Positions 7,321 to 59,944 are shown, counted from the stretch's first letter. The stretch: DNA of 64,000 bases from an uncultured bacterium (GCA_963827865.1 CAWHCO010000006.1:196579-260578), one strand, 5' to 3'. Made by a program: numbers and translations. Notes: generated by a model not told the origin, from the sequence alone.

Positions 7321-7344
7321 GCTGGGTTGTTGTACCTTGTAGTC

Positions 7345-12195: not shown

Positions 12196-12371
12196 GAACC
12201 CAAGGCTGATCGCTGTGAGCTGGGGAGCACCCAGCTGCCGGCTACCGGTAGAGTGGTGCCTGTGCGCCAGGATCCCGTGTGGACCTCGTCGACGCGCCCA
12301 GGACGACATACCGTGTACCGCCGGGCGGAGCCCGGTTGGCTGATTTGCAAAGCCGAGGGGGATCGGTAACG

Positions 12372-28998: not shown

Positions 28999-29278
28999 AG
29001 CAGCTGACAGCGGACAGCCGACAGCCAGAGCGCGGCCGGGAACAACGCGAGGCGTCAGGGCGACCTCCTACCGAGAACCCAGAACCGAGAACTCAGAACC
29101 GACGGGCGAAGCCTGTCACCCGTTTCCTCCCCTCGGGGGGCCGCAGCCGAGTGTTGGGGGAGGTGGCGTCGAGCTGATGCTCGACGCCGGAGGGGGTGGT
29201 TCTCACCAACGAAGCCACAAGAAGCCCCCTACCCCAGCGGCTGCGCCGGCGGTTTTCGATTCTCAGTTCTCAGTCACG
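28999..29278. repeat. heptad arrays + Q module + P fragment downstream of the ABC-F gene
   Basis: GCTGACA/GCGGACA/GCCGACA heptads at 29003-29030. GAGAACC/CAGAACC/GAGAACT/CAGAACC at 29073-29100. Q (forward, inner hairpin GTCGAGC-TGAT-GCTCGAC) at 29122-29210. Reverse P fragment CCCCCTACCCCAGCGGCTGCGCCGGCGG at about 29224-29251. AGTTCTC heptads at 29258-29278. Confidence 0.8.
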
Positions 29279-38813: not shown

Positions 38814-39520
38814 AGGCTCGCTGCGCGAGCAGTCTTCAGTCTCCAATCGTGAGCCAACAGCCAGCAGCTCACAGTCGACAGCCAGAACGCGACCTTGATC
38901 ACCATGAGAGCACAGGCGTTGTGTTTCCTCCCCTCGCGAGCGCAGCGAGTGTTGGGGGAGGTGGACTCGACGCAGCCGAGGACGGAGGGGGCGGTGCCCA
39001 CCAACGTTGCTGGCTTACGGTCCCCTACCCCAGCGGCTTCGCCACTGCGGTACTTTCCCCCCAACGCTCGACCCTGCGGCCTCGCTGGGGGGACCAACGG
39101 GCTCGCCTGCGCGAGTGGTCTTCAGTCTTCAATCGTGAGCCAACAGCCAACAGCTCACAGTCGACAGCCAGAACGCGCTCTGGGTCGGCTCGAGACCGCG
39201 GGGCCTCTGTTTCCTCCCCTCGCGAGCGAAGCGAGTGTTGGGGGAGGTGGCCGAGGCGAAGCCGAGGACGGAGGGGGTCGTTCTCAGCAACGTTGCTGGC
39301 TTACGGCCCCCCTACCCCAGCGGCTTTGCCGCTGCGGTACTTTCCCCCCAACGCTCGGCCCTGCGGCCTCGCTGGGGGGACCAACAAACCCGACGCTCAA
39401 GTCATCAGTCGTGAGCCAACAGCCAACAGCTCACAGTCGACAGCCAGAACGCGCTCTGGGTCGGCTCGAGACCGCAGGGCGACCTTCTTACCGAGAACTG
39501 AGAACTGAGAACCGAGAGCT
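38814..39520. repeat. 2.5 tandem copies of a roughly 288-bp composite unit (heptad array + Q + reverse P), ending in a GAGAACT heptad array
   Basis: Unit A 38814-39097, unit B 39099-39385, partial unit C about 39411-39478. Each unit has three parts. First, GGCTCGC.TGCGCGAG..GTCTTCAGTCT.CAATCGTGAGCCAACAGCC..CAGCTCACAGTCGACAGCCAGAACGCG. Second, Q forward (38923-39005 and 39209-39290). Third, reverse P (39006-39097 and 39291-39385). GAGAACT x3-4 follows at 39493-39520. Confidence 0.85.
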
Positions 39521-39536
39521 GCGGGCGGAGCTTCTC

Positions 39537-40565
39537 CTACAGCAGTGGCATCACCTCGGTGGCTATGCGCTCGAGCACCTCGATCTGACGGCCGTGGCTC
39601 ATGGCCGGGAACACCGATCGAGCGACGAACCGGATCGGCGCGCCGATCCTGTTCTGCAGGTCTTGGAGGCGACCCGCGATGAGTTCCCCCGGTCCGACGA
39701 GCGCTGTGGCGCGAAGCTGCGCCTCGGTTGCCGGGTCCAACGGTGGTGGAGCCGGGATCGGGCCGCTCCGAGTCGCAGAAGAGGCCATGTCCTGGTACTT
39801 CCAGCGCATCAGGTGGACATGGTCTCGAATCTCGGCCCAACCCTGTTCGACGTCGTCGCTCGGGTAGATGACGTCGTAGTGGGCCCAGGTGAACGCGTCG
39901 GGGTCGCGACCGTGGGCCTCCATCTCGGCGCGGGCGATGCGAACCTGTGTCTCGAACCGGTCGGCCGGTGCATTCGAGAAGATCCCGTCGGCGAGTCGTG
40001 CGGCACGCTTGATGGCGGCGTCTGCGCCGCCTCCGATCCAGATGGGGATGGGGTGGGTGGGTGTTGGACGGACCGCGACCTCAGGCAAGTCGTAGACGCG
40101 GCCCTGGTGGCGAAACGGCTCGCCGGACCACGCCTTGGGGAGGATGTCGAGGATCTCGTCCATGGCTCTGCCTCTGGTATGCAGATCGGCACCGAGCCCG
40201 GAGAACTCCACGGGCGACCAGCCGAGACCGAGGCCAAGGGTGAGTCGACCCCCTGCGATCAGATCCACGACGGCGGCGTCCTCCGCGAGACGGAGCGGAT
40301 GGTGGAGCGGGGCGAGGATCACACCGGTACCGACTCCGATGGTCGACGTTCGAGCCGCCATCGCCGCCGCCAGCGGCAGCAGCGAGGGCGCGTACCCGTC
40401 GTCGACGAAGTGGTGTTCGGTGGTCCAGATCGACGAGTACCCGAAGCGTTCGGCTTCCGCGGCGAGCTGGAGCGACTCACGGTAGAGGTCCTCCCAAGTG
40501 CGACCGTCGCCAGGGGCGCGCTGACAAGAAACCAGACCAATGCCGAGATCACTCACCGCAACCAA
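39537..40565 (-). CDS. LLM-class (luciferase-like) flavin/F420-dependent oxidoreductase
   Basis: ORF 39537..40565. [56 protein letters not shown]. Confidence 0.8.
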
Positions 40566-41307
40566 CTCCTCCTTGAATCGAGTTGACCGTACCGCCCGGC
40601 CCCTCGAGGAACCCCCACAAGGCGCCCGGGGCAGGAACCGTCACGCTGTAGTAGTCACCGAACTCGTCGGATGTGATGTCGACGGCGTCCCCGTACGCGT
40701 CGCGCAGGTCTTGGGCAGTCGACCCGAGACCGATCCCCTCGGCCGTCGTGAGCCCCCAGAAGTCGAAGTCGTAGAGCACGTAGCTGTAGAAGAACAAGTG
40801 CTTGATTCCGAAGGCGGCCCACGGTGTCGCCGCATCGGTGTACACGGTGGTCAGGTTGGACCACTCGACGACCCGGATCTCGGTTCCTGGGCAGGGTCCG
40901 TAGACCTGGTTGCCCTGATCGTCGGTTGGGGGCACCCACCCCGTGTCGGAGACGGGTTCGCCCAGGTATCCCACGAGTGTGGTGATCGCCGACTCGGGAT
41001 CGGTGCCGAACGGGATCCCGTCGATGTTCTCCGGTCCGAGAATCAGCACGTCCGACGGGGGAATCGTGGTCGTCGTGGGAGTCGTGGTGGTGGTTGTGGA
41101 GGAGGAGGTCGTTGTTGTCGTTTCTGTTGTCGTGGTGGAGGACGAGGAGGTCGTCGACGGCGCGGTCGTGGTGGTCGCACCGGCTGACGCAGTGGTGGTC
41201 GTCGTGTCGGAAGTCTGGTTCACGAGCGCCAAGAGGCCCACGGCGACAAACACGAGTGCCACAGCTCCGGCGAGGATGGCGAGGATGCGCCGCTGGACGT
41301 CGGTCAC
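40549..41307 (-). CDS. hypothetical membrane-anchored exported protein with Thr/Ser-rich linker
   Basis: ORF 40549..41307. An N-terminal TM ([21 protein letters not shown]), an S/T tract of about 60 aa, then a globular C-terminal domain ending in GGVGCGE. Overlaps both neighbouring genes. Confidence 0.6.
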
Positions 41308-41789
41308 GGGATCATCCTCGGATCGGGCCAGTACCGGGCGACGACGACTCGCCGCAGGTTCTCGATTGGCACGGGTCCGATCTGGCGGCTGTCACCAGCC
41401 GAGAGTGAGCGGGCGTCTCCCAGAACGATCGCCTCATTCGGATCGAGATCCCAGGAGGCGTCTGGACCGGTGGGGTCGGTCGTCCATGGTTCATCCAGCG
41501 GGGCACCGTCGGTGAGCACGCGACCGTCAGTGATCTCGACGTGTTCGCCAGGGAGCCCGATGACCCGCTTCACCATCCAGAAGTCCGGCCGGGACGGATG
41601 TTCGAACACGACGATGTCGCTCCGGGACGGCTCGCGTTCCCAGGTCAGAATCCGGTCACCCGGTCGTAGGACGGGGACCATCGACGCTTCGGAGATCTCG
41701 AAGCGGGCGAGCCCACGGTATGCGCGCCGCGCAGCAACACCGCCGGCAGCGGCGGCCACGAGCGTGGCGAAGGTGCGGGGCCATCTCAT
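41304..41789 (-). CDS. sodX: S26-family signal peptidase, NiSOD maturation protease type
   Basis: ORF 41304..41789. SEASMVPVL (catalytic Ser), MVKRVIGLPGE (Lys), GDARSLSAGDSRQIGPV. Divergent from sodN with a 54-nt gap. Confidence 0.8.
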   Translation of the reverse strand: MRWPRTFATLVAAAAGGVAARRAYRGLARFEISEASMVPVLRPGDRILTWEREPSRSDIVVFEHPSRPDFWMVKRVIGLPGEHVEITDGRVLTDGAPLDEPWTTDPTGPDASWDLDPNEAIVLGDARSLSAGDSRQIGPVPIENLRRVVVARYWPDPRMIP

Positions 41790-41843
41790 GTTCGTTCAGG
41801 ATGAGTGTATCGTCGGATGCGACCACCCTGTCAGGAGGCAACC

Positions 41844-42260
41844 ATGGATCTGTTCGGTCCCATCCGCACCGCGCACGCACACTGTGACTTGTTCTGTGGC
41901 GTCTACGACCCCGCACAAGCCAAGATCGAAGCGGCGTCCGTGCTCGAGATCACCACCAAATACCTCGCGTCAGAAGACCCCGTTTTCAAGGCTCGTGCGC
42001 TGTATCTGAGAGAGGAGCGCGCCGAGCTGGCCAAGCATCATCTCATGGTGCTGTGGGCCGACTTCTTCGCACCGGAGCACGCCGAGCAGTTCCCGCAGCT
42101 TCACGACCTGTTCTGGAGGGCCATCAAGCAGGCGGGCATTGCCAAGAAGACGGTCGATCCGGAGGACGGCCGCAAGCTGCTCGAGCTGATCGACGAGATC
42201 TCGGTCATCTTCTGGAAGACCGACAAGGCCAAGAAGATGGGTGTGTACCCGCCGGCCTGA
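41844..42260 (+). CDS. sodN: nickel-containing superoxide dismutase precursor
   Basis: In frame with ORF 41805..42260. ATG 41844 follows AGGAGG. A 12-aa leader MDLFGPIRTAHA precedes the Ni-hook HCDLFCGVYDPAQAKIEAASV. Also seen: REERAELAKHHLMVLW. Matches the Streptomyces NiSOD architecture as I recall it. Confidence 0.9.
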   Translation: MDLFGPIRTAHAHCDLFCGVYDPAQAKIEAASVLEITTKYLASEDPVFKARALYLREERAELAKHHLMVLWADFFAPEHAEQFPQLHDLFWRAIKQAGIAKKTVDPEDGRKLLELIDEISVIFWKTDKAKKMGVYPPA

Positions 42261-44024: not shown

Positions 44025-44157
44025 CGGCGCGGAGGCTACCAGGCGGTGTCCGCTCGCCCGGATGGATATGCGCTCTGCCGGGATTGTCGGCGTGGTGGGC
44101 CACCGGAGAACGTGAACTGCGGAGGTGCCTGCTGTGGGCGGTCGTGAGCGGGCTACG

Positions 44158-44364
44158 TTGCTGGGAACGACCCCCTCCGTCCTCGGCTCCGCCGAGTCCA
44201 CCTCCCCCAACACTCGCTTCGCTCGCGAGGGGAGGAAACAGGAACCGCCCCTTCCGTCCTCGGCTCCGCCGAGTCCACCTCCCCCAACACTCGCTTCGCT
44301 CGCGGGGGAGGAAACGGGAACGGCCTCCGCCGTTTTCGGTTCTCAGTTCTGGGTTCTCGGTAGG
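44158..44364. repeat. two tandem Q modules (reverse orientation) + heptad array
   Basis: Q at 44158-44239 and a 5'-truncated Q at 44241-44313, both ending CTCGCTTCGCTCGCG(A/G)GGGGAGGAAAC. CGGTTCT/CAGTTCT/GGGTTCT heptads at 44337-44364. Confidence 0.85.
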
Positions 44365-44441
44365 AAGCTCGCCCTGGCGAGCCGATCCACGGCGCTTTCT
44401 GGCTGGAGACTGGAGGAATCGGGGCGCACCACGGCCTGCGG

Positions 44442-46377: not shown

Positions 46378-46397
46378 CGGTGTGAGGCTAGGGCAGT

Positions 46398-46567
46398 GTT
46401 GGTCCCCCCAAGGAGCCCGCAGGGCGACGTTGGGGGGAAAGTACCGCATAAGCCGTCTGGGGTAGGGGGGTGGTGCGCGGGCTACGTTGGTGGGAACGGC
46501 CCCCTCCGTCCTCGGCTTCGCCTCGGCCACCTCCCCCAACACTCGCTTCGCTCGCGGGGGAGGAAAC
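46398..46567. repeat. P + reverse-Q composite (left copy of the pair bracketing the BMC region)
   Basis: GTTGGTCCCCCCAAGGAGCCCGCAGGGCGACGTTGGGGGGAAAGTACCGCATAAGCCGTCTGGGGTAGGGGGGTGGTGCGCGGGCTACGTTGGTGGGAACGG...CTCGCGGGGGAGGAAAC. It shares the private variant CGCATAAGCCGTCTGGGG with 52781-52950. Confidence 0.85.
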
Positions 46568-46589
46568 GGGTGGTCAGCGCAGCGGGCGT

Positions 46590-47297
46590 CTATCGCCCGC
46601 GGGTTCCCCAGCGGCGGACGAGGTAGAGCCAGAGTGGCCCGGGGTCGCGCTGCTCGATCGGGGGTTCCGGTACGGGTTCGGGCTCCGGCGCCGGTTCCGG
46701 CGGCGGCTGCTCGGCAGTCTCGAGTTGCGTCCGCAGATCACGGACTCGCTCCTTCAGGAAGTGCGCCTCGGTCTCGGCCTTGGCGGCCCGCTCTCGCGCA
46801 TCTGCGAGTTGCTGGCCCGCCTCGTGCAGGTTCCCCAATTGGTTGAGGAGGCGGCGCCACTCATCGATGGGTACGAGCATCGAGCCTTCCGGGACCGGTG
46901 GCGTGGGAGGCTGCGCCGCGGACACGCCACCGTCGCGAGGAGCCGGAGGCCCTTCGCCCGGATGTGTCGCCTGGGCAGGCGGCTCCTCGGCCGGTCGCTT
47001 CTTCTGTTTCGGTGGTTCGGCGGGCCGTTTCTTCTGTTTCTGTTTCTGCTTCTGTTTCTGCTTCTGTTTCTGCTTCGATGCTTCGGCTTCGGCGCGGGAC
47101 CGAGCCCGCTCCACGACCTCGGACCTGAGCACCACGCGCTCGTCGTCCACGAGTCTCGAACCAATCTTCTGTTTGCGAGCCCAGTTGCGGATCGTCTTGG
47201 CAGAAAGGCCGGTGATTTCGGCCGCGATGTCGAGTGTCACCCAGCTCCGTGGGGGCGGGGGAGCGGACGGGCTCTGCCAGACGAAGGCCGGATCCAT
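46590..47297 (-). CDS. excisionase/MerR-type HTH DNA-binding protein with (KQ)n repeat, Pro-rich tracts and a coiled-coil region
   Basis: In frame with ORF 46590..47330 (ATG 47297 or GTG 47330). HTH WVTLDIAAEITGLSAKTIRNWARKQKIG, then KQKQKQKQKQKQKKRPAEPPKQKKRPAEEP, then the helical segment LLNQLGNLHEAGQQLADARERAAKAETEAHFLKERVRDLRTQLE. Divergent from the BMC operon. Confidence 0.6.
   Translation of the reverse strand: MDPAFVWQSPSAPPPPRSWVTLDIAAEITGLSAKTIRNWARKQKIGSRLVDDERVVLRSEVVERARSRAEAEASKQKQKQKQKQKQKQKKRPAEPPKQKKRPAEEPPAQATHPGEGPPAPRDGGVSAAQPPTPPVPEGSMLVPIDEWRRLLNQLGNLHEAGQQLADARERAAKAETEAHFLKERVRDLRTQLETAEQPPPEPAPEPEPVPEPPIEQRDPGPLWLYLVRRWGTRGR
47034..47075. repeat. in-frame hexanucleotide microsatellite CTG(T/C)TT x7 inside the HTH gene
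   Basis: CTGTTT CTGTTT CTGCTT CTGTTT CTGCTT CTGTTT CTGCTT on the + strand, which encodes (KQ)7 on the coding strand. Confidence 0.9.
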
Positions 47298-47343
47298 GCC
47301 CAGGGAGCCTAGTTGGGTGCAGGGCACCAATTAGGCGTGTCTC

Positions 47344-47462
47344 GTACCTTGTACCTTGTACCTCGTGCCGTGCGCAGCCTGAACGGGTTCGACAGGCTCT
47401 GGCTGTCAGCTGTTTGCTGTTGGCTGTCAACTGTTTACTAATGACTGAAGACTGATGGCTGA
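47344..47462. repeat. heptad arrays in the divergent HTH/BMC intergenic region
   Basis: GTACCTT GTACCTT GTACCTC at 47344-47364. Then about 47398-47462 reads as period-7 units GGCTGTC AGCTGTT TGCTGTT GGCTGTC AACTGTT TACTAAT GACTGAA GACTGAT GGCTGAC. Confidence 0.75.
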
Positions 47463-47487
47463 CTCCCCGGTGCCCTAGGATGCCGAT

Positions 47488-48033
47488 ATGCCGTCAGAGT
47501 CGGAGGTTCGAGAACTCGTGCGCGCAGCCGTCGAGGCACTCCAGCCCGTATCTGAGAGCGGGTCTCGACCGGACGCCGCCTCGGACTCCATCGCTGTCGG
47601 GGCCGACCACGGAGGCTACCCGATGAAGGAGAAGATCGCCTTCCACCTCCGGGAGCGCGGCTTCGACGTACATGACTGCGGCACCGGCAGCGGCGACTCG
47701 GTCGACTACCCCGAGTTCGCCCACGCCGTCGCCCGGCTCGTCGCCGACGGGACGTGCCGGTTGGGGATCATCGTCGACGGGGCGGGAATCGGCTCTTGCA
47801 TGGTCGCCAACAAGGTCCCGGGGGTGCGAGCTGCCCTTTGCTACGACCTGTCGTCTGCTCGCAACAGCCGTGAGCACAACCACGCTAATGTCCTCACTCT
47901 GGGCGCCGGGCTGATCGGCACGAACCTCGCGCTCCAAATCGTCGACGAGTGGCTCGCCACCGACTGGGCCGGCGGACGACACGAACGACGGGTCGGGATG
48001 ATCGACGAGATCGATCGCAGGTATCGCACATGA
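47488..48033 (+). CDS. RpiB/LacAB-family sugar-phosphate isomerase, BMC-associated paralog with an N-terminal extension of about 32 aa
   Basis: ORF 47488..48033. The core is [61 protein letters not shown]. The N-terminal [34 protein letters not shown] has no counterpart in the second rpiB at 57396-57842. Confidence 0.88.
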
Positions 48034-48854
48034 CCAACGAGCAACTGATCGAGATCATCACCAAGCAGGTCCTCCAGCAGCTCACCACCCACGAGGACGA
48101 CTGCAACGGCGCCTGCGCGTACCACAGCCCCGATCAGGTCCGCGAGGTCGTCGCCACCGGAGCCAACCGGGTGTCCTATCGGGGGTCGGGCGCCGACGTA
48201 CCCCGGGACCTCGCCCGCTACATCGATCACACGCTCCTCAAGCCCGACGCGACGTCGGCCGACATCGACCGGCTGTGCACGGAGGCGTCCGAGTACGGGT
48301 TCGCCGCCGTGTGTGTCAACCCCTACTGGGTCAAGCGGTGCGCGAAGAACCTACGCGGCACATCGGTCAAGATCGCATCCGTTATCGGCTTCCCGCTCGG
48401 CGCTACGCCATCGGAGATCAAGGCGTTCGAAGCGCGCAGAGTCATCCGGGACGGCGCAACAGAAATCGACATGGTGATCAACATCGGGGCGCTCCGCTCG
48501 GGCGACTACGACCTCGTTCGCGACGACATCGCCAAGGTGTCGGACGCATGCCACGAGTCGGGTGCGCTGAACAAGGTGATCATCGAGGCGGCTCTGTTGA
48601 CCGACGAGGAGAAGGTCATCGCCTCGGCGCTCGCGAGGGAAGGCAGAGCCGACTACGTGAAGACATCCACCGGGTTCGCGTCGAGTGGAGCGACGGTCCA
48701 CGACGTGCTCCTCATGAGAGAGACCGTCGGGCCCAAGATGGGTGTGAAAGCGGCCGGCGGTATCCACACCGCCGAGGATGTTCGGGATATGGTGGCCGCC
48801 GGTGCGACGAGGATCGGCGCGTCGGCAGGCGTACAGATCGTGACGGGAGAGTGA
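48030..48854 (+). CDS. deoC: deoxyribose-phosphate aldolase (DeoC family), BMC-associated, with an N-terminal extension of about 60 aa
   Basis: In frame with ORF 47949..48854. ATG 48030 overlaps the isomerase stop (ATGA). The core is [64 protein letters not shown] (Schiff-base Lys)..VKAAGGI. The extension begins [20 protein letters not shown]. Confidence 0.9.
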
Positions 48855-48858
48855 TCCG

Positions 48859-49485
48859 GTGAGTGACGTCGAACTGAGGAGCTACGCATTCCTGGACAGT
48901 CTCCAGCCCCAGTACGCCGCGTTCCTCGGAACCGTCGCTCAGGGGTTCCTGCCACTCGCCGGAGACGCGTCGCTGTACATCGAGATCTCCCCCGGCATCG
49001 AGATCAACCGTCTCACCGACGTGGCGTTGAAGTCGACGAGGGTCAAGCCCGGCATGCAGGTTGTCGAGCGGTACTACGGCGTGCTCGAGATTCACTCGCC
49101 AGAGCAGGCGGAGACCCGTGCCGCGGGAGCGGCGATCCTCCACGATCTGGGCCTCGCGGAGACCGACCGTCTCAAGCCGAAGATCCTGTCGAGTCAGATC
49201 ATCCGGCGGATCGACGACCACCAGGCGCAGCTCATCAACCGAACCCGGCATGGACAGATGATCATCCCGGGCCAGACCCTCTACGTGATGGAGGTCGAGC
49301 CGGCGGCGTACGCGCCACTTGCCGCCAACGAAGCGGAGAAAGCAGCGGACATCAATGTGCTCGAGGTTCGGGCGTTCGGTTCGATGGGCCGTATCTACCT
49401 CGGTGGTGAGGAACGGGACATCGACGTCGGGTGGCGTGCGGCGATAGCCGCCATCGAAGGTGTCGAAGGACGAGAAACGAAGTAG
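48859..49485 (+). CDS. BMC-T shell protein, permuted tandem-BMC-domain type (resembles the double-stacking BMC-T2/T3 of Haliangium ochraceum as I recall them)
   Basis: ORF 48859..49485 (GTG). [74 protein letters not shown], and a second domain [45 protein letters not shown]. Confidence 0.8.
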
Positions 49486-49502
49486 AAGAGAGGAGACAGC
49501 CG

Positions 49503-49805
49503 ATGGCTGAAGCGTTGGGGATGATCGAGGCTCGTGGTTTCGCGGCGATGGTCGAAGCGGCCGACGCGATGGTGAAGGCTGCCAAGGTCGAGCTGGTGAG
49601 CTACGAGAAGACCGGTGGCGGCTACGTCACGGCGATCGTTCGTGGAGACGTGGCGGCCGTCAAGGCCGCGATCGAAGCAGGCGTACGGAACGCGGAGAAG
49701 GTCGGCGAAGTCATCGCGACTCACGTCATCGCCCGCCCGCACACGAACGTCGACCTGGTGCTGCCCCTTGGCCGCGCCGAGGAGGCACAGGCCGAAACCT
49801 CCTGA
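49503..49805 (+). CDS. BMC-H shell protein (PduA/CcmK-like hexamer)
   Basis: In frame with ORF 49431..49805. ATG 49503 follows [67 protein letters not shown]. Confidence 0.95.
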
Positions 49806-49816
49806 GAGGAGACGAC

Positions 49817-50104
49817 ATGCTCCTAGCGCGAGTCGCCGGGACGCTCGTCGCCACCAGAAAGGAGCCCAGCATGTCCGGGCTCAAGTTCCTGGTGCTGCGA
49901 CAGCTCGATGTCGACGACACCGAGACGGGCGGCTACGTCGTCGCAGCCGACGCCGTCGGTGCCGGCGTCGGCGAGATCGTCCTCTACGCGACGGGCAGCT
50001 CGGCACGCCAAACCGAACTCACCAACAACCGACCCTGTGACGCGGTCGTCATGGCGATTGTCGACACCTGGGAGGTCGGCGGGGAAGAGAAGTACCACAA
50101 GTGA
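49817..50104 (+). CDS. BMC-P vertex protein (EutN/CcmL family), copy 1
   Basis: ORF 49817..50104. [61 protein letters not shown]. Close in pattern to E. coli EutN. Confidence 0.92.
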
Positions 50105-51555
50105 TCGATCAGGCCGAGATCCAAGAGATCATCGAGCGGGTCCGGAAGAAGCTCGGCGAGGCCGGCGAGTCCGTCGGCGCGGGGCTACGTGGCAGCACGG
50201 CTCTGGAAGCGATCGCTCCGGCCGACCTTGGCGAAGGCATCTATCCGACCGTCGATGAAGCAGTCGCCGCAGCCAGACGGGCGTTCGAAGCGTACCGGTC
50301 GGTTGGACTCGAGGGTCGCAAGACGATCATCAGCGCCGTGCGCGCCTCGATGCTCCAGCACGGAGAACAGCTCGCCGAGATGGCCCACGCCGAGACGGGA
50401 CTCGGTCGAGTCGAGGACAAGATCGTCAAGAACCGGATCGTCACGACGAAGGCACCCGGCCCCGAGGATCTTGAGCTGGAGGCAGCCACAGGCGATCTCG
50501 GCATGGTCGTCACCGAGTTCGCCCCCTACGGGGTGATCGGGTCGATCACCCCCACGACGAACCCGACGTCGACCATCATCAACAACACCATCTCGATCGT
50601 CTCGGCGGGCAACGCGCTCGTCTTCAACGTGCACCCGAGCGCCAAGCGCGTCTCGGCCGAAAACGTCCGACTCATCAACAGGGCGATCGTCGCCGCTGGT
50701 GGCCCACCCGACCTGGTCGCCGCCATCCCCAACCCGACGATCGCCTCGGCGAAAGAGCTGATGGTGCACCCGGACGTCCCGGTGCTGCTCGTGACCGGAG
50801 GCGGGGGAGTGGTCAAAGAGGCGATGCGCACCGACAAACGCGTCGTTGCCGCTGGGCCGGGCAACCCTCCGACCGTTGTCGACCAGACCGCCGACCTCGA
50901 CAAGGCCGCCCGCGACATCGTGCTCGGAGCGTCGTTCGACAACAACATCGTCTGCATCGACGAGAAGACGGTGATCGCCATCGACACCATCGCCGACTCG
51001 CTGGTCAGGAAGATGGCGGACCAGGGCGCCTACGTCCTGAAGGGGCACGAGCTACGCCGGATAGAACGGGTCGTGTTCTCCGAGCTGGGACCACCGAACA
51101 AACCCGGGGTCATCAACAAAGAGTGGATCGGCAAGAACGCAGGGGCGATTCTCGCCGAGATCGGCGTGCAGGTGGGCCCGGAAGTCCGTTTGGCCGTGGC
51201 CGAGGTCGCGATAGAACACAGCCTGGTGTGGACCGAGCAGATGTTGCCGGTGCTGCCGGTCGTCCGGGTTCCGGACGTCGACCGGGCGATCGATCTTGCG
51301 GTGCGGTCCGAACATCGTTTCCGCCACACTGCATCGATCCACTCGACCAACGTTGAAACCATCACCCGCATGGCCAGAGCGATGGACTGCTCGATCTTCG
51401 TGGCGAACGGTCCCCACTACGCGGGACTGGGAGAAGGCGGTGAAGGGTTCGCATCCTTCTCGATCGCCAGCCCGACCGGCGACGGGCTGACTCGACCCCG
51501 GACCTTCTCTCGTGAACGGCGCATCACCGTTGTCGGTGCACTGAGGATCGTGTGA
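50101..51555 (+). CDS. CoA-acylating aldehyde dehydrogenase (EutE/PduP-like), with an N-terminal amphipathic helix
   Basis: ORF 50101..51555 (GTG, overlapping the BMC-P stop as GTGA). [24 protein letters not shown], catalytic Cys in [11 protein letters not shown]. The N-terminus is [20 protein letters not shown]. Confidence 0.9.
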
Positions 51556-52124
51556 TGCGGCCGGCGCTCGCGTTGCTCGAGTTCGACTCGATCGCCCGTG
51601 GAATCGAGGCAGGCGACCAGATGGTCAAGCGTGCGCCCGTCGAAGTGCTCCGCGCAGGAACGGTCCAGCCCGGCAAGTACCTCGTGCTGATCGCCGGCGA
51701 GGTCGGCGACGTCGAGGAGGCTGTCGACGCAGGCAAGGCGATCGCCACGCTGATCGATCTGGTCCTGCTCCCGGATATCCATCCGGATGTGACCGCCGCC
51801 GTCCGAGGTGCTCGCAGGGCGGGTGAGGGCGAGGCGCTGGGGGTCATCGAGACTCGGACCGTCGCCGCCGTCATCCAGGCAGCCGACGCGGGCGTCAAGG
51901 GAGCGAAGGTGACGCTCCAGGAGATCCGCCTCGCCGACGGCCTCGGCGGCAAGGGCTACCTGCTGTTCCAAGGTCCCGTGGCCGAGGTGGAGGCCGCAGT
52001 CGAGATCGGCTCGGCGAGCGTTCCGGAGCGGGTGATCTCCGTGGTCATCCCGCAGCTCCACCCGGAGATGGGCGACAACCTGTCGGCCGACGGGCGGTTC
52101 TCCGAACGGGTCGGCGAGGAGTAG
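51552..52124 (+). CDS. BMC-T shell protein, tandem canonical BMC domains (PduT-like)
   Basis: ORF 51552..52124. Domain 1 is ALALLEFDSIARGIEAGDQMVKRAPVEVL..GKYLVLIAGEVGDVEEAVDAG. Domain 2 is ALGVIETRTVAAVIQAADAGVKGAKVTLQEIRLADGLGGKGYLLFQGPVAEVEAAVEIG. Confidence 0.9.
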   Translation: MMRPALALLEFDSIARGIEAGDQMVKRAPVEVLRAGTVQPGKYLVLIAGEVGDVEEAVDAGKAIATLIDLVLLPDIHPDVTAAVRGARRAGEGEALGVIETRTVAAVIQAADAGVKGAKVTLQEIRLADGLGGKGYLLFQGPVAEVEAAVEIGSASVPERVISVVIPQLHPEMGDNLSADGRFSERVGEE

Positions 52125-52126
52125 CG

Positions 52127-52393
52127 GTGCAACTCGGGCGTGTCGTCGGAACGGTCGTGGCCACGGTCAAGACGCCAGGGCTGGAAGGCGTCAAGTTCCT
52201 CATCGTCCAGCCACTGGACCGCCGCCAAGAGCCGAACGGGAGGCCGGTGGTCGCCGCAGACGGGGTGCACATGGCCGGACCGGGCGAACTCGTGTACATC
52301 GTCGGGTCCCGAGAGGCCGCCCAGGCACTGCCGAACACGTTCGTACCCGTGGACCATGCGATCGTCGGGATCGTCGACCAGGTGAGCTCGTGA
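52127..52393 (+). CDS. BMC-P vertex protein (EutN/CcmL family), copy 2
   Basis: ORF 52127..52393. MQLGRVVGTVVATVKTPGLEGVKFLIVQPLD..VVAADGVHMAGPGELVYIVGSREA..HAIVGIVD. Confidence 0.9.
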   Translation: MQLGRVVGTVVATVKTPGLEGVKFLIVQPLDRRQEPNGRPVVAADGVHMAGPGELVYIVGSREAAQALPNTFVPVDHAIVGIVDQVSS

Positions 52394-52662
52394 AGGTCGG
52401 GACCGTGGTCGGTACGGTCGTCTCGACGATCAGCTCGCCGGTGTTCGACGGCCGGAAGCTGCTCCTCTGTGACCTCCTCGACGCGGATGGCAACCCGGAA
52501 GGCGGGTACCTGATCGCCGTGGATGTCGTCGATGCAGGCGTCGGGGAGAAAGTACTCATCCTCGACGAAGGCAATTCCGCACGCCAGATCGTCGGTTTGG
52601 ACACGGCCCCGATCAGGGCCGTCGTGGTGGGAATCGTTGACGAGACAACGATGGACAGCTGA
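52390..52662 (+). CDS. BMC-P vertex protein (EutN/CcmL family), copy 3
   Basis: ORF 52390..52662 (GTGA overlap). MKVGTVVGTVVSTISSPVFDGRKLLLCDLLD..LIAVDVVDAGVGEKVLILDEGNSARQ..RAVVVGIVD. Confidence 0.9.
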   Translation: MKVGTVVGTVVSTISSPVFDGRKLLLCDLLDADGNPEGGYLIAVDVVDAGVGEKVLILDEGNSARQIVGLDTAPIRAVVVGIVDETTMDS

Positions 52663-52996
52663 CAAGCGACAGCCGACAGCTGACAGCTAACAGCCAACGG
52701 CCAACAGCCTCTGGCACCTCCCCAGTCGGGTCCTTGCTGTTCGCCGTGAGCCGTCCCCCCCAGCGTTGAGCGTTGGGCTTGTTGGTCCCCCCCAGGAGCC
52801 CGGGGGGCGACGTTGGGGGAAAGTACGCATAAGCCGTCTGGGGTAGGGGGGCGGTGCGCGGGCTCTGTTGGTGGGAACGGACCCATCCGTCCTCGGCTTT
52901 CAGCCGAGTCCACCTCCCCCAACACTCGCTTCGCTCGCGGGGGAGGAGACAGATCCGCACCCCCCAACACTCGGCCTTCGGCCCAGGGGAGGAAAC
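52654..52996. repeat. heptad array + P/reverse-Q composite (right copy of the bracketing pair) + extra Q fragment
   Basis: Eight heptads GACAGCT GACAAGC GACAGCC GACAGCT GACAGCT AACAGCC AACGGCC AACAGCC at 52654-52709, starting in the last codons of the BMC-P gene. P fragment at 52751-52780. P at 52781-52851 and reverse Q at 52867-52950, about 90 percent identical by eye to 46398-46567. Fragment ...CCCCCAACACTCGGCCTTCGGCCCAGGGGAGGAAAC ends at 52996. Confidence 0.85.
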
Positions 52997-53028
52997 GCGA
53001 GCTCAGGTCTTGACAAAGCGACACCAAC

Positions 53029-53071
53029 ATGACATCATCATGACATCACAAGGAGGAAGGTAATGATGTCA
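53029..53071. promoter_or_regulatory. cluster of TGACATCA motifs (two direct, one inverted) in an AT-richer patch with a TTGACA hexamer
   Basis: TTGACA at 53010-53015. ATGACATCA at 53029-53037 and 53040-53048 (11-bp spacing). Inverted TGATGTCA at 53064-53071, overlapping the small-ORF start. Related GTGACGTCAC palindrome at 53236-53245 and GTGACATCG at 53248-53256, just before the MFS start codon. Confidence 0.35.
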
Positions 53072-53212
53072 ATGGCGGAGAGCTACTCGAGGGCGATGAA
53101 GGCGGAGATCGAGCGCAAGGTGGCGGCACAGGTCGTGATCGACTACGTTCCTGGTACTCATCGTCGTGATGAGCGCAAGGTCAAGACGGCTGGAGGACGC
53201 CGCGCAGCATGA
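53063..53212 (+). CDS. candidate 49-aa ORF upstream of the MFS gene (too short for the ORF track)
   Basis: My translation gives MMSMAESYSRAMKAEIERKVAAQVVIDYVPGTHRRDERKVKTAGGRRAA, stop TGA 53210-53212. It is preceded by AAGGAGGAAGG at 53050-53060, one of the clearest Shine-Dalgarno sequences I saw in the window. Confidence 0.4.
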   Translation: MMSMAESYSRAMKAEIERKVAAQVVIDYVPGTHRRDERKVKTAGGRRAA

Positions 53213-53258: not shown

Positions 53259-54551
53259 ATGAAGACATTCTTCGTCGTGTGGATCGGACAGCTGGTATCG
53301 ATCGTCGGATCGAGTCTGACCGGGTTTGCCCTCTCGATCTGGGTCTATCAGCAGTCGGGTTCGGTGACGTTGCTCGCCCTCGTGATGCTGGCGGCCACGG
53401 TTCCCGGCATCATCGTCGCCCCGTTCGCGGGTGCGCTCGTCGACCGGTGGGATCGGCGTCTGACGATGATGGGTGGCGACGGTGCGGCGGGCATCGCAAC
53501 CGGTGTCGTCGCTCTTCTGCTCTTCCTGGGTGACCTCCACCTGGCATGGGTGTTCGTGCTGGTCATCGTTGGCTCCATCGGCAACTCGTTCCAGGAGCCG
53601 GCGTGGACGGCGTCGATCCCGATGCTCGTTCCGAAACAGCACCTCGGCCGTGCCAACGGGCTCGCGCAGACGGGCCAGGCCGTGGGGCAGCTCTTGGCCC
53701 CGGCGATCGCCGGGGCCCTGCTGACGCTCTTCGGGCTCAAGGCAGTTCTGCTGATCGACTTCGTCACGTTCCTGTTCGCAGTATCCACCGTCGCGCTCGT
53801 TCGCATCCCCAGTCCGAAACGCTCGACCGCCGTCGAGTCGCTGAGGACGGAAGCCGGCGACGGCTGGCGTTTCGTGAAGGAACGTCCTGGGCTGTTGGGA
53901 CTTCTCGTTGTCATGGCAACTCTCAACTTCGAGTTCGGCTTTGCCAACGTCCTGTTCATCCCTCTGTTCCTCAGCTTCACGAACGAGCTCGTGTTCGGGT
54001 CGGTGATGTCGATCGCGGGCATGGGCATGCTCGTCGGTACCGTCGTCATGAGCACGTGGGGTGGCCCAAAGAAGCGGGTCCGAGGACTGGCGTCACTGCT
54101 CTCGGTCGCGGGCCTGGCGACGTGCGTCGTCGGGTTGCGCCCGGCCGTCGTGCCTGCGGCCGCGGGGATGTTCGCACTCATGCTCCTGATCCCTATCGTC
54201 AACGGCACGAGCACGACGCTGTGGCAGATGAAGGTCGATCTCGATATGCAGGGACGGGTGTTCGCATTGCGCCGGATGATGGCGCTGATCGCAACCCCCC
54301 TCTCCTACCTCCTGGCCGGACCCTTGGCGGACAAGGTGTTCGAGCCACTGATGAGCGGTCCGCTGGTGGACACCGTCGGCAAGGTGATCGGGGTCGGGGA
54401 GGGTCGCGGTATCGGGCTGCTGTTCATCGTGATGGGTCTACTGCTCGTGCTGACGATGGCGTTTGCCTACGCCATGCCTCGAATTCGTCATCTGGAAGTC
54501 GAGCTGCCCGACGTAGTTACCGAGGCTATCCCCGAAGCGACCACGTCGTGA
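53259..54551 (+). CDS. MFS transporter (MFS_3 / enterobactin-macrolide exporter-like)
   Basis: ORF 53259..54551. MKTFFVVWIGQLVSIVGSSLTGFALSIWVYQQSGS, FAGALVDRWDRR, 12 hydrophobic segments. Confidence 0.85.
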   Translation: MKTFFVVWIGQLVSIVGSSLTGFALSIWVYQQSGSVTLLALVMLAATVPGIIVAPFAGALVDRWDRRLTMMGGDGAAGIATGVVALLLFLGDLHLAWVFVLVIVGSIGNSFQEPAWTASIPMLVPKQHLGRANGLAQTGQAVGQLLAPAIAGALLTLFGLKAVLLIDFVTFLFAVSTVALVRIPSPKRSTAVESLRTEAGDGWRFVKERPGLLGLLVVMATLNFEFGFANVLFIPLFLSFTNELVFGSVMSIAGMGMLVGTVVMSTWGGPKKRVRGLASLLSVAGLATCVVGLRPAVVPAAAGMFALMLLIPIVNGTSTTLWQMKVDLDMQGRVFALRRMMALIATPLSYLLAGPLADKVFEPLMSGPLVDTVGKVIGVGEGRGIGLLFIVMGLLLVLTMAFAYAMPRIRHLEVELPDVVTEAIPEATTS

Positions 54552-55449
54552 CTGCAGATCCGCCGAGCAGCACCACACCGATGAACGCCAAGAGCGCCTG
54601 ATCTCCTCCGCAGCGACTCTCGCTGCACAGCAAACCGTCACTCTCCCAACTGCCGATGAGCGATGCCAGCGTGCTCGCCGGTTGCTCGGCCGACACGGTT
54701 GTCGTCGTTGTCGTGGGGAACGCCGCGGCCGATGCCGTCGTCGACGTCGTAGTCGTCGAAGCGGTTGTTGTGACAGGTCCGGTCGTCTCGGTCGTTGACG
54801 TGCTCGTGGTCGGTGTACCCGTCGTGGTTGGCGCCTGGGTCGGAGTGGTCGTGGGTGGTGGTGGGGCTGTCGTGGTCGACGTAGAGGTTGTTGTCGTCGG
54901 GTGCGTGGTCGTTGTCGTCGGTGGGGGAGCGGTGGTCGTGGTCGGTGGTGGGGCCGTGGTGGTCGTGGTGGTGGCTGGAGCGTTCTGTCTCTGGAGGAAG
55001 ACGTCGGTGGTCCATATCACCGAGTTCTCGTCTATGTAGACGCCGATCCCCGCGTACTGATATACCGGATCCAGGAGGTTCTCACGGTGCGAGGACGACG
55101 CCCAGAATGCGTCGAACAGCGCATCACACGAGCCTCCGACACCGACGTTCTCGCCCCACTGCATCCAATCATCGGGGAGGTAGGGCGCGAGGTCGTCCGT
55201 CGACGAGTGATAGATGCTGCCGTGCTCGTGCATCGCCTTCGAGTGGGTGCGAGCGTACTCGGTGAGTGTCGAGTTCGTGGTGAGTGTCGGTGTCCTGTTT
55301 GCCACTCGTGCGGCGTTGATCTTGGCAAGAAAGCACGTCTCGGCATCAGAGGTCGCATCGGCCAGCGCGGGCTGCGCAACCAAGATGGTTGCGGCCATGG
55401 CCCATACGAAGATCAACCCAATTGCTCGGGTTCGGTGCCTAGTGTTCAC
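54526..55449 (-). CDS. CAP/SCP-domain exported protein with a long Thr/Pro linker and a C-terminal membrane anchor
   Basis: ORF 54526..55449. Signal IGLIFVWAMAATILVAQPALA. CAP-like HSKAMHEHGSIYHS..WGENVG..HRENLLDPVYQYAGIGV. About 110 aa of T/P-rich sequence. C-terminal LLAFIGVVLLGGSAV. The 3' end overlaps the MFS gene by 26 nt. Confidence 0.7.
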   Translation of the reverse strand: MNTRHRTRAIGLIFVWAMAATILVAQPALADATSDAETCFLAKINAARVANRTPTLTTNSTLTEYARTHSKAMHEHGSIYHSSTDDLAPYLPDDWMQWGENVGVGGSCDALFDAFWASSSHRENLLDPVYQYAGIGVYIDENSVIWTTDVFLQRQNAPATTTTTTAPPPTTTTAPPPTTTTTHPTTTTSTSTTTAPPPPTTTPTQAPTTTGTPTTSTSTTETTGPVTTTASTTTTSTTASAAAFPTTTTTTVSAEQPASTLASLIGSWESDGLLCSESRCGGDQALLAFIGVVLLGGSAVTTWSLRG

Positions 55450-55491: not shown

Positions 55492-56388
55492 TCAGCCCTC
55501 GATCGCGTTGATGACGAGCGCACCTGAGATCGCGGGGTCGGCGATCCCGAGATGGTTCACGCCGGGAAGCATCGTCAGGTGGCTGTCGTACCCGGCGTCC
55601 TCGAGTTGCTGTTCGAAGTAATGGGAGAACAACGGCGGAACCACCAGGTCCTCCTCGCCATGGAACAGTCGCACGACGAGATCCAGGTTCCGCCCAAGGT
55701 AGGTCAGAGGATTACCCAGCCGCCAGGGCTCGGGATCGACATCCGGATCGGTTCCGAAGAACGGGATCATCAGCGGACCGAGAGCATCGGTGTCGTACGG
55801 TCCCGCGAGCCCCACCATCCTCGTCGGTAGCGTGTCGTTCATCTCGACGAGACAGTCACCGTCGAAGGTATCGGCGGCGAGCGCGACGAGGGCGGCGATC
55901 TGGGCTCCTGCCGAGTAGCCGACGACGACGAGCTGCGAAGGGTCACCCCCGTACTCGGCGCTGTGAGCAGCGGCGAAGCGCACCGCACACGCGGCGTCCT
56001 CGAAGGTCATCGGAAACCCGCCACCGTCCAGCAGGAGGCGGTACGGCGCGTTGAACACGACGGTACCCGAGTCGGCGATCGTTCTGGCGAGTGGAGCGAT
56101 GTCATCCGGGGTGCCGCTGATCCACCCGCCCCCGTGGAACAGGACGACGGTCGGGCCCGTCGATCCGTACACGTCGAGACTCAGGGTCGAGGTGAACGCA
56201 ACGTGACGGGCGGCGGCGATCGTGGTCGTTGTCGGCGGTGCCGTCGTGGTAGTCGTGGGTGGCACCGTTGTGGTGGTCGTGGTCGTTGGCACGGTGGTGG
56301 TGGTCGTGGTCGTCGTCGTTGCGGTCGGGGGCAACGCGGTGGTGCATGCTGCGACCGCCAAGGTGGCGAGGAGCGCGAGTCGTTTCAC
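55492..56388 (-). CDS. alpha/beta-hydrolase lipoprotein (esterase/lipase type)
   Basis: In frame with ORF 55492..56553. GTG 56388 gives VKRLALLATLAVAAC (lipobox). A poly-Thr linker follows, then LFHGGGWISG (oxyanion hole) and VGYSAGAQIA (nucleophile elbow). Confidence 0.8.
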   Translation of the reverse strand: MKRLALLATLAVAACTTALPPTATTTTTTTTTVPTTTTTTTVPPTTTTTAPPTTTTIAAARHVAFTSTLSLDVYGSTGPTVVLFHGGGWISGTPDDIAPLARTIADSGTVVFNAPYRLLLDGGGFPMTFEDAACAVRFAAAHSAEYGGDPSQLVVVGYSAGAQIAALVALAADTFDGDCLVEMNDTLPTRMVGLAGPYDTDALGPLMIPFFGTDPDVDPEPWRLGNPLTYLGRNLDLVVRLFHGEEDLVVPPLFSHYFEQQLEDAGYDSHLTMLPGVNHLGIADPAISGALVINAIEG

Positions 56389-56558
56389 AGGTGAGCTTCG
56401 CTTTGGTCTCTTCGGAGAACGCCCCGGAGAGAAGTCCGCACTCGGCCTCGCGCCACTCGAATGCGATCGCCGATGCCACCACCGAACGTTCCGGCTCGTG
56501 GGCCATCTGTTGGCAGTGGGCATACCCATGATGCTAGGGGGACCCCGACTCAAGCCGG

Positions 56559-57244: not shown

Positions 57245-57393
57245 CTCGCTTCGCTCGCGGGGGAGGAAACGGGTGGCGACTTTGCTCGCCGTACTCGGTT
57301 CTCGGTTGTCGGTTCTCGGTAGGACACTCGCCCCATAGTCGTTGAACGCGTCCAGGCCGCGTTCCGACTGAAGACTGAAGACTGAAGACTGTC
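57245..57393. repeat. Q fragment + two heptad arrays between convergent genes
   Basis: CTCGCTTCGCTCGCGGGGGAGGAAAC at 57245-57270. CGGTTCT/CGGTTGT/CGGTTCT/CGGTAGG at 57296-57323. GACTGAA x3 + GACTGTC at 57366-57393. Confidence 0.8.
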
Positions 57394-57395
57394 TC

Positions 57396-57842
57396 CTAGA
57401 ACTCTTCTTCCAGCGCTTTGATCTTGTTCACTCGCCGGACGTGACGCTCGGCTCTCGAGAACGTGGCGTTCACGAACGCCGCGACGATCTCGTCGGCGAG
57501 CGCAGTGCCCACGACCCTGCTTCCTATCGCCAGGACGTTCACGTCGTCATGTTCGACGCACTGATGGGCCGTGTAGGTGTCGTGCGCAAGGCCGGCTCGG
57601 ATGCCTCGCAGCTTGTTCGCCGCGATCGACGCACCCGCTCCGGATCCGCAGACGACGATGCCCCGTTCCGCAGTTCCGTCCAACACCGCCCTTCCGACTG
57701 CCGCTGCGAAGTCCGGGTAGTCGACGGGCTCCTCCGAGTAGGTGCCGACATCGATGATCTCGTGACCGGCTGCTGCCACGCGGCGGGCGATGTGCTGTTT
57801 GAGCTGGTAGCCGGCGTGATCCGAACCCACGACGATGCGCAT
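57396..57842 (-). CDS. rpiB: ribose-5-phosphate isomerase B (housekeeping-type, no extension)
   Basis: In frame with ORF 57396..58034. ATG 57842 gives MRIVVGSDHAGYQLKQHI. Also seen: GIVVCGSGAGASIAANK (Cys at the E. coli-type catalytic position), HDDVNVLAIG, RHVRRVNKI. Confidence 0.9.
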   Translation of the reverse strand: MRIVVGSDHAGYQLKQHIARRVAAAGHEIIDVGTYSEEPVDYPDFAAAVGRAVLDGTAERGIVVCGSGAGASIAANKLRGIRAGLAHDTYTAHQCVEHDDVNVLAIGSRVVGTALADEIVAAFVNATFSRAERHVRRVNKIKALEEEF

Positions 57843-59758: not shown

Positions 59759-59777
59759 CGGCTCGCTGTTCTTGCAG

Positions 59778-59819
59778 TCGACAGCCAACAGCTGACAGCT
59801 GACAGCTGACAGCAAGAAG
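59778..59819. repeat. heptad array GTCGACA GCCAACA GCTGACA x3 GCAAGAA
   Basis: Read directly from the sequence. Three perfect GCTGACA units lie at 59792-59812, flanked by degenerate units. Confidence 0.85.
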
Positions 59820-59944
59820 TGTGGGGTCGCGGACTGGGAATCACGCCATATGTCTCCGTCGCATTCATGGAGCGCTCTGGCTGTGGGCTGTCAGCTACCG
59901 GCGGTGACTTGCATGCGGGACGGTTAGACCCCAGACTCCCATCC

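Follow-up and report, generated by a model that had tools for sequence, protein, structure and literature searches.

The window analyzed here, a 64,000-nucleotide (nt) stretch of DNA from an uncultured bacterium (GCA_963827865.1, CAWHCO010000006.1:196579-260578), carries on its + strand an operon of nine intact open reading frames (ORFs) at positions 47488-52662 (~5.2 kb), in which genes for putative cargo enzymes are combined with those for the shell proteins of a bacterial microcompartment (BMC; Table 1). Searches of the nine deduced proteins against the Pfam and NCBIfam profiles, decisive in all nine cases, revealed that genes for hexamer-forming (BMC-H; PF00936) and pentamer-forming (BMC-P; PF03319) shell proteins are clustered within these 5.2 kb. 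At four junctions, the start and stop codons of adjacent genes overlap by 4 nt (ATGA at 48030-48033, and further overlaps at 50101-50104, 51552-51555, and 52390-52393), and the other junctions are spacers of 4, 17, 11, and 2 nt. The nine same-strand genes, four overlaps, and gaps of 2-17 nt listed in a preliminary description of the window were all recovered at their positions. The hairpin that follows the operon is the sole terminator-like site on the + strand between 47488 and 53000, and none lies inside the operon. Because the operon is present in identical form in six independently assembled metagenome or metagenome-assembled genome (MAG) records, an assembly artefact can be ruled out; its GC content equals that of its flanks.

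Table 1. Genes and other features of the microcompartment operon and its immediate borders (positions in the 64,000-nt window).
Feature	Position	Strand	Profile match or remark
RpiB-family protein (RPI), 181 aa	47488-48033	+	PF02502, 178 bits; TIGR01120, 153 bits
Deoxyribose-5-phosphate aldolase (DERA), 274 aa	48030-48854	+	TIGR00126 deoC, 277 bits (cut-off 117)
BMC-Tdp, CcmP-like, double-stacking gated type, 208 aa	48859-49485	+	NCBIfam CcmP, 346 bits (cut-off 340)
BMC-H hexamer protein, 100 aa	49503-49805	+	PF00936, 103 bits
BMC-P pentamer protein 1, 95 aa	49817-50104	+	PF03319, 101 bits
CoA-acylating aldehyde dehydrogenase (AldDH), 484 aa	50101-51555	+	PRK15398, 615 bits
BMC-Ts, single-layer tandem, PduT-like, 190 aa	51552-52124	+	two PF00936 domains, 123 bits
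BMC-P pentamer protein 2, 88 aa	52127-52393	+	PF03319, 95 bits
BMC-P pentamer protein 3, 90 aa	52390-52662	+	PF03319, 87 bits; start overlaps stop of BMC-P2
Terminator-like hairpin	52759-52777	+	97 nt past the final operon stop
HTH_17/MerR-like protein with C-terminal coiled coil	46590-47330	-	PF12728, 25 bits, just under cut-off
Intergenic region upstream of operon	47331-47487		last ~45 nt conserved in nearest other species (L007)

The shell genes had previously been read as one for a BMC-H, two for different BMC-T, and three for BMC-P proteins, and this reading is borne out by the profile searches: BMC-H, BMC-Ts, and the three BMC-P proteins match the BMC or EutN profiles directly (Table 1), and BMC-Tdp was recovered through the CcmP model. 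BMC-Tdp attains 19.5 bits with the Pfam BMC profile, a score under its cut-off, and matches PF27545 (CsoS1D_N). It is 67% identical, over 204 residues and without gaps, to the crystallised CcmP of Synechococcus (4HT5/5LSR). Despite the sub-cut-off Pfam score, its amino acid sequence unambiguously predicts a CcmP-like shell protein, and its gating pair Glu70-Arg71 is invariant in 69 of 69 homologues. Since BMC-Tdp passes the 'equivalog' cut-off of the CcmP model although it is non-carboxysomal, automatic naming as a carboxysome protein in a heterotroph may occur. BMC-H possesses the interface residues Lys25 (in KAAK) and Arg78 (in RPH), which are invariant in 65-67 homologues together with Gly38 to Gly40. 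The latter form its pore loop (49614-49622), which reads Gly-Gly-Gly in all 66 homologues compared versus the usual Gly-Ser-Gly. BMC-Ts contains no cysteine; when aligned to PduT (3N79), it has Gln39 (51666-51668) where PduT uses Cys38 as Fe-S ligand. Among its homologues, this pore position is occupied by His in 42, Gln in 13 (the protein from the window included), Gly in four, and Ser and Cys in one each. The three BMC-P paralogues are mutually 40-45% identical, with BMC-P1 sharing 42-45% with the other two.

Two of the three cargo genes encode proteins with well-conserved catalytic residues. AldDH, described beforehand as an EutE/PduP-like dehydrogenase with a catalytic Cys in an 11-residue motif, fits this description: the motif is present, the protein matches the BMC aldehyde dehydrogenase 5JFL with 409 bits, and its Cys285, invariant in 65 of 65 homologues, lies on the catalytic Cys. 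At the C-terminus, the alignment extends to the end of 5JFL, and AldDH has no extension there. Its N-terminus comprises an amphipathic helix resembling an encapsulation peptide (EP; residues ~5-20), followed by a linker. DERA had likewise been correctly recognized as a DeoC-type class I aldolase by its DYVKTSTGF motif. It matches the solved DERA 8QPS over residues 60-273 (257 bits), and Lys211 of the motif aligns with the catalytic Lys of solved homologues. Asp147, Lys182, Lys211, and Lys240 are invariant in 80 of 80 homologues, and Asp147, Lys211, and Lys240 are spaced 64 and 29 residues apart, just as in Escherichia coli DERA (D102/K167/K201) and in the assayed aldolase of an SPU6-type compartment discussed below (D165/K229/K258).

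The catalytic core of DERA is preceded by an N-terminal extension of ~60 residues that is conserved in homologues. An AlphaFold2 model built with 43 homologues (mean predicted local distance difference test score [pLDDT] 79.9) places helices at residues 3-18 and 34-42 of this low-confidence extension; the model was run to check a Cys/His segment as a metal site, and residues 16-28 fall below a pLDDT of 50. In this segment (residues 21-33; 48090-48128), only Cys25 and Cys29 are kept, with His21 and His32 at their sides. Most DERA extensions of related loci (L008-L086) carry a four-cysteine motif after the N-terminal helix; it reads CxxCxxxCxxxC in Chloroflexota and many Actinomycetota, reads CxxxCxxxxCxxxC in Anaerolineae-type loci, and is wholly lost in some Acidimicrobiia. 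The four-Cys segment might bind a metal or act in redox chemistry; the main text of the study of the SPU6 enzymes does not mention it (Dwyer et al., 2024; PMC11585597).

The third cargo protein, RPI, had been taken for an RpiB/LacAB-family isomerase. Its membership in the family stands (Table 1), but its function as an isomerase is doubtful, since RPI lacks two catalytic residues of RpiB, Cys66 and Thr68. In a residue-for-residue alignment to E. coli RpiB (1NN4), Asp97 takes the place of Cys66 and Ala99 that of Thr68. Asp97 is present in 76 of 76 homologues and Ala99 in 75 of 76, and except at these two positions the residues of the RpiB pocket are all kept. Eight of the nine pocket positions (D40, H41, D97, H130, N131, R164, H165, and R168) are invariant in 76 species, whereas invariant columns make up only 18% of the alignment (hypergeometric P ~4e-6). 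The replacements are hence fixed rather than drifting, unlike what would be expected of a decayed active site, and the strict conservation of the altered pocket across species argues that it is under selection. This conservation is the one point that our analysis adds to what has been published on such proteins, and it sharpens the question of the role of RPI. At its N-terminus, RPI has an EP-like amphipathic helix (residues ~5-20) and a linker of ~15 residues. The N-terminal 14-mers of RPI and AldDH have the top helical hydrophobic moment of each protein, and homologues share this helix; judged from such features, the N-terminal amphipathic helices would package DERA, RPI, and AldDH inside the shell. 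A second RpiB is encoded 5 kb downstream of the operon (57396-57842, - strand, 148 aa). This protein shares 43% identity with the BMC copy, has kept the catalytic Cys, and lacks an N-terminal extension; an RpiB match occurs at the same relative position in the related loci L046 and L054.

The combination of a DeoC aldolase and an RpiB-like protein led the preliminary description to the sugar phosphate utilization (SPU) class, correctly so, and the composition of the operon matches the published subtype SPU3. SPU loci were named in 2014 (Axen, 2014; PMC4207490), and a survey from 2021 raised their number to >280, from 26 phyla, and distinguished seven subtypes (Sutter, 2021; PMC8217296). According to this survey, AldDH, pfam01791, and pfam02502 are the only enzymes of SPU3 loci, with pfam02502 coming first, and AldDH and DERA carry N-terminal EPs (Supplementary Data 2 of PMC8217296). 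The SPU3 shell is formed from one BMC-H, a BMC-P triplet of which two genes are adjacent, a CcmP-like BMC-Tdp, and a BMC-Ts without a PduS partner and without a pore cysteine; carriers include Actinobacteria, Chloroflexi, and Acidobacteria (PMC8217296). Every testable item of this description was found in the operon, among them the N-terminal EP of AldDH, the CcmP-like BMC-Tdp, the Cys-less BMC-Ts, and the three-enzyme set. The RPI and DERA genes are separate and ATGA-coupled here, while 12-20 SPU3 loci carry them as a fusion. The parts of the supplements to the 2021 survey that were accessible contain no match for Acidimicrobiia or BMS3Abin02 (PMC8217296). We are fairly confident that the operon encodes an SPU3-type metabolosome of an uncultured Acidimicrobiia bacterium that works along the deoxyribose-5-phosphate (dR5P) scheme proposed below. 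It is a further member of a catalogued subtype and not a new system. The designation as an uncharacterised system can therefore not be upheld: after the cataloguing in 2014 and the subtyping in 2021, SPU6 enzymes were assayed in 2024, and archaeal shells were described in a 2025 preprint. The accompanying statement that no substrate, flux direction, or structure had been shown for any SPU compartment holds for bacteria in vivo and for native particles, since the literature searched contained no in vivo work on a bacterial SPU compartment, and none of them was found with a substrate or flux direction established in the cell or with a structure of its native shell; it does not hold for the DERA activity of SPU6 in vitro and for archaeal shell assembly.

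Two other SPU subtypes were considered and rejected. SPU2 loci have four BMC-P genes and a BMC-Ts usually with a pore cysteine and often with a PduS partner (PMC8217296); the three BMC-P genes, the Cys-less BMC-Ts, and the lack of PduS rule this subtype out. The SPU6 locus of Chloroflexi bacterium GWB2_54_36 is the only SPU locus with enzyme data (Dwyer et al., 2024; PMC11585597). It shares with the operon the N-terminal extension of DERA with the same spacing of the catalytic triad, an RPI with an N-terminal EP and Asp in place of Cys66, the adjacency of the RPI and DERA genes, three BMC-P proteins, and the lack of a phosphotransacylase (PTAC). Features of its own are a C-terminal EP on an AldDH from an EUT3-related branch, a BMC-Tdp of the 'blue' clade, the lack of BMC-Ts, an EutQ-like small protein (130 aa), and a GntR/UTRA regulator. 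The operon differs from it by its N-terminal AldDH EP, its CcmP-like BMC-Tdp, the presence of BMC-Ts, the HTH_17 gene upstream, and the lack of an extra small gene; the N-terminal EP, BMC-Ts, and the missing EutQ-like gene rule out SPU6.

Further systems resemble the operon in part. For an SPU-type compartment of Hodarchaeales, shell assembly and peptide-dependent cargo recruitment have been described (bioRxiv 2025 preprint; PMC12747264). The operon has in common with it the DERA and AldDH core, dR5P as the proposed substrate, and P-, H-, and T-type shell proteins; cargo recruitment requires EPs there, and the cargo proteins encoded by the operon carry EP-like helices. The archaeal system alone possesses a DERA-flavoprotein fusion, PTAC, citrate synthase, an MNdh protein with a Cys-pore BMC-Ts, and a BMC-P with a DNA-binding disordered tail, all of which are absent from the operon. 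With ethanolamine (EUT) and propanediol (PDU) utilization compartments, the operon shares an acylating AldDH, which would here likewise trap a volatile aldehyde in a shell of BMC-H, BMC-T, and BMC-P proteins, and N-terminal amphipathic helices as putative targeting signals. It differs from them in that the source of the aldehyde is a class I aldolase rather than a B12-dependent lyase or dehydratase, in that an internal cofactor-recycling enzyme is missing, and in that the PduT-like protein has no Fe-S ligand. BMC-Tdp shares the sequence identity given above and the Glu-Arg gate with CcmP of beta-carboxysomes (4HT5, 5LSR), and it matches the BMC-T proteins of the Haliangium ochraceum model shell (5V74, 5V76) with 236-248 bits; the loci of this bacterium have the BMC-P triplet in common with the operon. 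A beta-carboxysome can be dismissed, since the CcmP-like protein is its only component present, RuBisCO, CcmM/N, and carbonic anhydrase are lacking, and the cargo is catabolic.

A Pfam scan covered 40 further genes of the window, which together with the nine operon genes makes 49. They include genes for ATP synthase, Rho, peptide chain release factor 1 (RF1), serine hydroxymethyltransferase (SHMT), methionyl-tRNA synthetase (MetRS), Ni superoxide dismutase (Ni-SOD), 2-oxoacid:ferredoxin oxidoreductase, transporters, and hydrolases. The 40 are housekeeping or unrelated genes, as the preliminary description had already said of the neighbourhood. None of the 49 genes encodes a diol dehydratase, an ethanolamine ammonia-lyase, or a glycyl-radical enzyme, so that the signature enzymes of the PDU, EUT, and glycyl-radical enzyme (GRM) compartments are all missing among them. 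The same scan of 49 genes gave no PTAC, alcohol dehydrogenase (AlcDH), or PduS.

The compartment probably breaks down dR5P derived from DNA. In the proposed mechanism, a closed shell would be built from BMC-H, the single-layer BMC-T, the gated CcmP-like BMC-T, and three distinct pentamers, and dR5P from the breakdown of deoxynucleosides or DNA would enter it. DERA would cleave dR5P to glyceraldehyde-3-phosphate (G3P), which would exit to glycolysis, and acetaldehyde, which would be retained; AldDH would then convert acetaldehyde, CoA, and NAD+ to acetyl-CoA and NADH. The reaction sequence from dR5P via G3P and acetaldehyde to acetyl-CoA was put forward for SPU compartments by Dwyer et al. (2024; PMC11585597), as it was in the preliminary description. 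As neither the locus nor the window codes for PTAC, AlcDH, or PduS, both acetyl-CoA/CoA and NADH/NAD+ would have to pass the shell; the most plausible route is the gated pore (~14 Å) of BMC-Tdp. Exit of acetyl-CoA through BMC-Tdp in loci without PTAC has been proposed as well (Dwyer et al., 2024; PMC11585597). In this scheme, RPI is not a ribose-5-phosphate (R5P) isomerase; it would most likely bind DERA 1:1 and help to organise the core, and a stoichiometric RPI-DERA complex would fit the ATGA translational coupling of the two genes. The sequence data show gene content and order, the intactness of the genes, catalytic and gating residues, N-terminal helices, and conservation; packaging into the shell, the substrate used in vivo, the direction of flux, and the path of the cofactors are inferred.

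Published data on SPU6 provide the biochemical background for this assignment. The SPU6 DERA without its N-terminal extension cleaves dR5P in vitro, and its RpiB-like partner has negligible activity on R5P and forms a ~1:1 complex with DERA; Asp occupies the Cys66 position in all SPU RPIs (Dwyer et al., 2024; PMC11585597). It is less probable, to an extent that makes us regard it as unlikely, that RPI is a working enzyme or a ligand-binding subunit in the same compartment and not an inert scaffold. Asp97 might act as a base on a sugar phosphate other than R5P, RPI might be a LacA-like half-site partner, or it might open the furanose ring of dR5P and pass the open chain on to DERA. The variant in which RPI fulfils such a role within the DERA complex, be it another reaction, ring opening and presentation of dR5P, or substrate sensing, has a similarly small chance of being correct. 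The invariance of the pocket against a background of largely variable columns, and the fixation of the two replacements themselves, speak for a working RPI, and activity on other sugar phosphates was left open by Dwyer et al. (PMC11585597). However, the SPU6 protein was practically inactive on R5P, the kinetics of the SPU6 DERA were no better in the complex, and SPU5 loci manage entirely without an RpiB-like protein (PMC11585597). Moreover, dR5P has no 2-hydroxyl group, which makes aldose-ketose isomerisation impossible, and the pocket residues may serve folding or the DERA interface instead. If RPI did work in one of these ways, the accepted SPU scheme would miss a step, and the entry substrate or first step would differ from the published one.

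Several points weigh against the assignment as an SPU3 metabolosome that degrades dR5P. The SPU3 call was made from written descriptions and not with the authors' BMC Caller hidden Markov models or reference phylogeny. The enzyme data stem from SPU6 only, whose DERA is 52-59% identical (tblastn, Anaerolineae-type loci). The cofactor problem, posed by the lack of internal NAD+/CoA recycling, is resolved by assumption only. Genes for a supply route of dR5P, such as those for phosphopentomutase, nucleoside phosphorylase, and a nucleoside transporter, were not found in the 64-kb window; deoB, pta/ackA, and adhE were likewise looked for in the window and not found. The adjacent major facilitator superfamily (MFS) gene, in turn, is of the Mef/EntS-like efflux type and has its own promoter-like site. 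We rejected it as a candidate for the substrate importer on these grounds, given also its leader ORF and the fact that it adjoins the operon in only one other species. Finally, DERA and acylating aldehyde dehydrogenases catalyse reversible reactions, and sequence data therefore do not fix the direction of flux.

In the condensing direction, acetyl-CoA would be reduced to acetaldehyde, which DERA would join to G3P to form dR5P, for aldehyde scavenging or deoxyribose synthesis; the preliminary description had also allowed for it. Besides the reversibility of both enzymes, the lack of PTAC and AlcDH genes in the locus that would pull the flux to acetyl-phosphate or ethanol agrees with this direction. 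Characterised metabolosomes, however, are all catabolic, other SPU subtypes carry downstream enzymes of the PTAC, triose-phosphate isomerase (TPI), and acetate kinase type, and regulators of a sugar-phosphate-responsive repressor type are encoded upstream of syntenic loci, which fits induction by the substrate. We consider operation in the condensing direction very improbable.

These regulators were found in loci that are syntenic with the operon. In Chloroflexota, a SorC-family sugar-phosphate-binding regulator (PF04198) is encoded directly upstream on the same strand in 14 loci, and a GntR/UTRA regulator is found directly upstream in five. SorC and GntR/UTRA proteins are effector-binding regulators of sugar-phosphate pathways and fit the proposed substrate class; SorC is the family to which the deoxyribonucleoside regulator DeoR of Bacillus subtilis belongs. 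In three Chloroflexota loci, the operon is closely followed by a second DeoC-family gene, which is divergent and lacks the N-terminal extension (the loci for the regulators and the second DeoC are L059 8372-9361, L022 8692-9447, L041 14994-15776, and also L048 and L062). The HTH_17 gene of the window is divergent from the operon, and its start codon is uncertain (231 aa in other assemblies). A homologue is present at the same position and in the same orientation in 11 syntenic loci of Acidimicrobiia and other Actinomycetota, with the coiled coil conserved, and we regard the protein as a candidate regulator of the operon. Beyond its last ~45 nt, the intergenic region that separates the two consists of dispersed heptamer repeats. 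No sigma-70-like site was detected in 47331-47487, a consensus that is uninformative for an actinobacterium. Rfam models at gathering thresholds gave no match in the whole window, so that the operon is not preceded by a known riboswitch or leader.

The operon is widely distributed. A scan of one genome per species detected relatives of the extended DERA in 597 genome stretches; the nearest species-level genome is that of an uncultured Acidimicrobiia MAG, with a DERA of 96% identity. Synteny was assessed in a sample of 80 of the 597 DERA-bearing stretches, and in 52 of these, all from other species-level genomes, the nine genes lie within 7 kb in the same order, RPI-DERA-Tdp-H-P-AldDH-Ts-P-P. 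These 52 loci belong to Acidimicrobiia, other Actinomycetota, Chloroflexota, Acidobacteriota, and a few other groups. Between Acidimicrobiia and Chloroflexota, the shell proteins share 80-90% identity, a level that suggests horizontal transfer in the past and fits the literature on the spread of BMC loci (PMC8217296). The genes for MetRS, Ni-SOD, an EamA transporter, and an alpha/beta hydrolase recur beside the operon in other Acidimicrobiia; given this recurrence of flanking genes and the matching GC content, the operon is a resident part of the chromosome. That it was acquired recently as a mobile cassette, or is a relic in decay that its host does not use, as might be read from an 82% complementary inverted pair of repeats at its borders (47402-47434 and 52655-52687) and from the shell protein identity between the two phyla, is hardly credible: the same heptamer repeats occur at at least seven unrelated intergenic sites in the window, so that the pair was discarded as the ends of a mobile element, the GC content is that of the flanks, all nine ORFs are intact and do not differ among six assemblies, and the flanking genes recur.

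The repeats belong to a set of dispersed modular intergenic elements, located at 7178-7324, 9218-9247, 12065-12222, 29001-29025, 38821-39524, 44129-44376, 46397-46573, 47398-47466, 52642-52960, 57245-57396, and 59775-59897. A 30-nt repeat core (CCACCTCCCCCAACACTCGCTTCGCTCGCG) is present in eight copies with 0-1 mismatch (expected: 0), and the tandem heptamer (ACAGCYR)n has 32 overlapping matches (expected: 0.2). Several heptamer runs start within ~20 nt of a stop codon, and one overlaps that of BMC-P3. The elements have no Rfam match and give rise to long spurious ORFs in which the peptide LGEVDSAEPRTEGAVP recurs; they could be REP-like, terminator, or mRNA-stability elements.

Other observations concern the neighbouring genes. 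Sigma-70-like sites were found only at 53010-53067, upstream of the next gene, where TTGACA-17-CATCAT is combined with a strong ribosome-binding site. This promoter-like site and the ribosome-binding site are followed, within 53010-53212, by an ORF of 49 aa just upstream of the MFS efflux gene (53259-54551), and the unit of the 49-aa ORF and the MFS gene appears to be separate from the BMC operon. The Ni-SOD gene (41805-42260, + strand) lies beside a divergent gene for an S26-type peptidase (41304-41789, - strand), which is the usual sodN/sodX maturation pair; the same pair is found in the vicinity of the BMC operon in further loci of Acidimicrobiia. Three predicted secreted proteins are encoded on the - strand (40549-41307, 54526-55449, and 55492-56553) and contain long Thr/Pro-rich low-complexity linkers, whose codon repeats form the repeat family D1. 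No Pfam match was obtained for one of them; another contains a CAP domain, and the remaining one is an esterase.

The questions that the operon touches have already been posed in the literature of 2021-2025, and it opens no new one; they are the role of RPI, the recycling of NAD+ and CoA without PTAC or AlcDH, and whether deoxyribose derived from DNA is the true substrate. With its compact set of nine genes and no accessory enzymes, the operon is a reasonable minimal template for the reconstitution of an SPU shell with its cargo. It adds an abundant lineage of sediment Acidimicrobiia to the carriers of a microcompartment type that ranks among the most widespread and the least tested.

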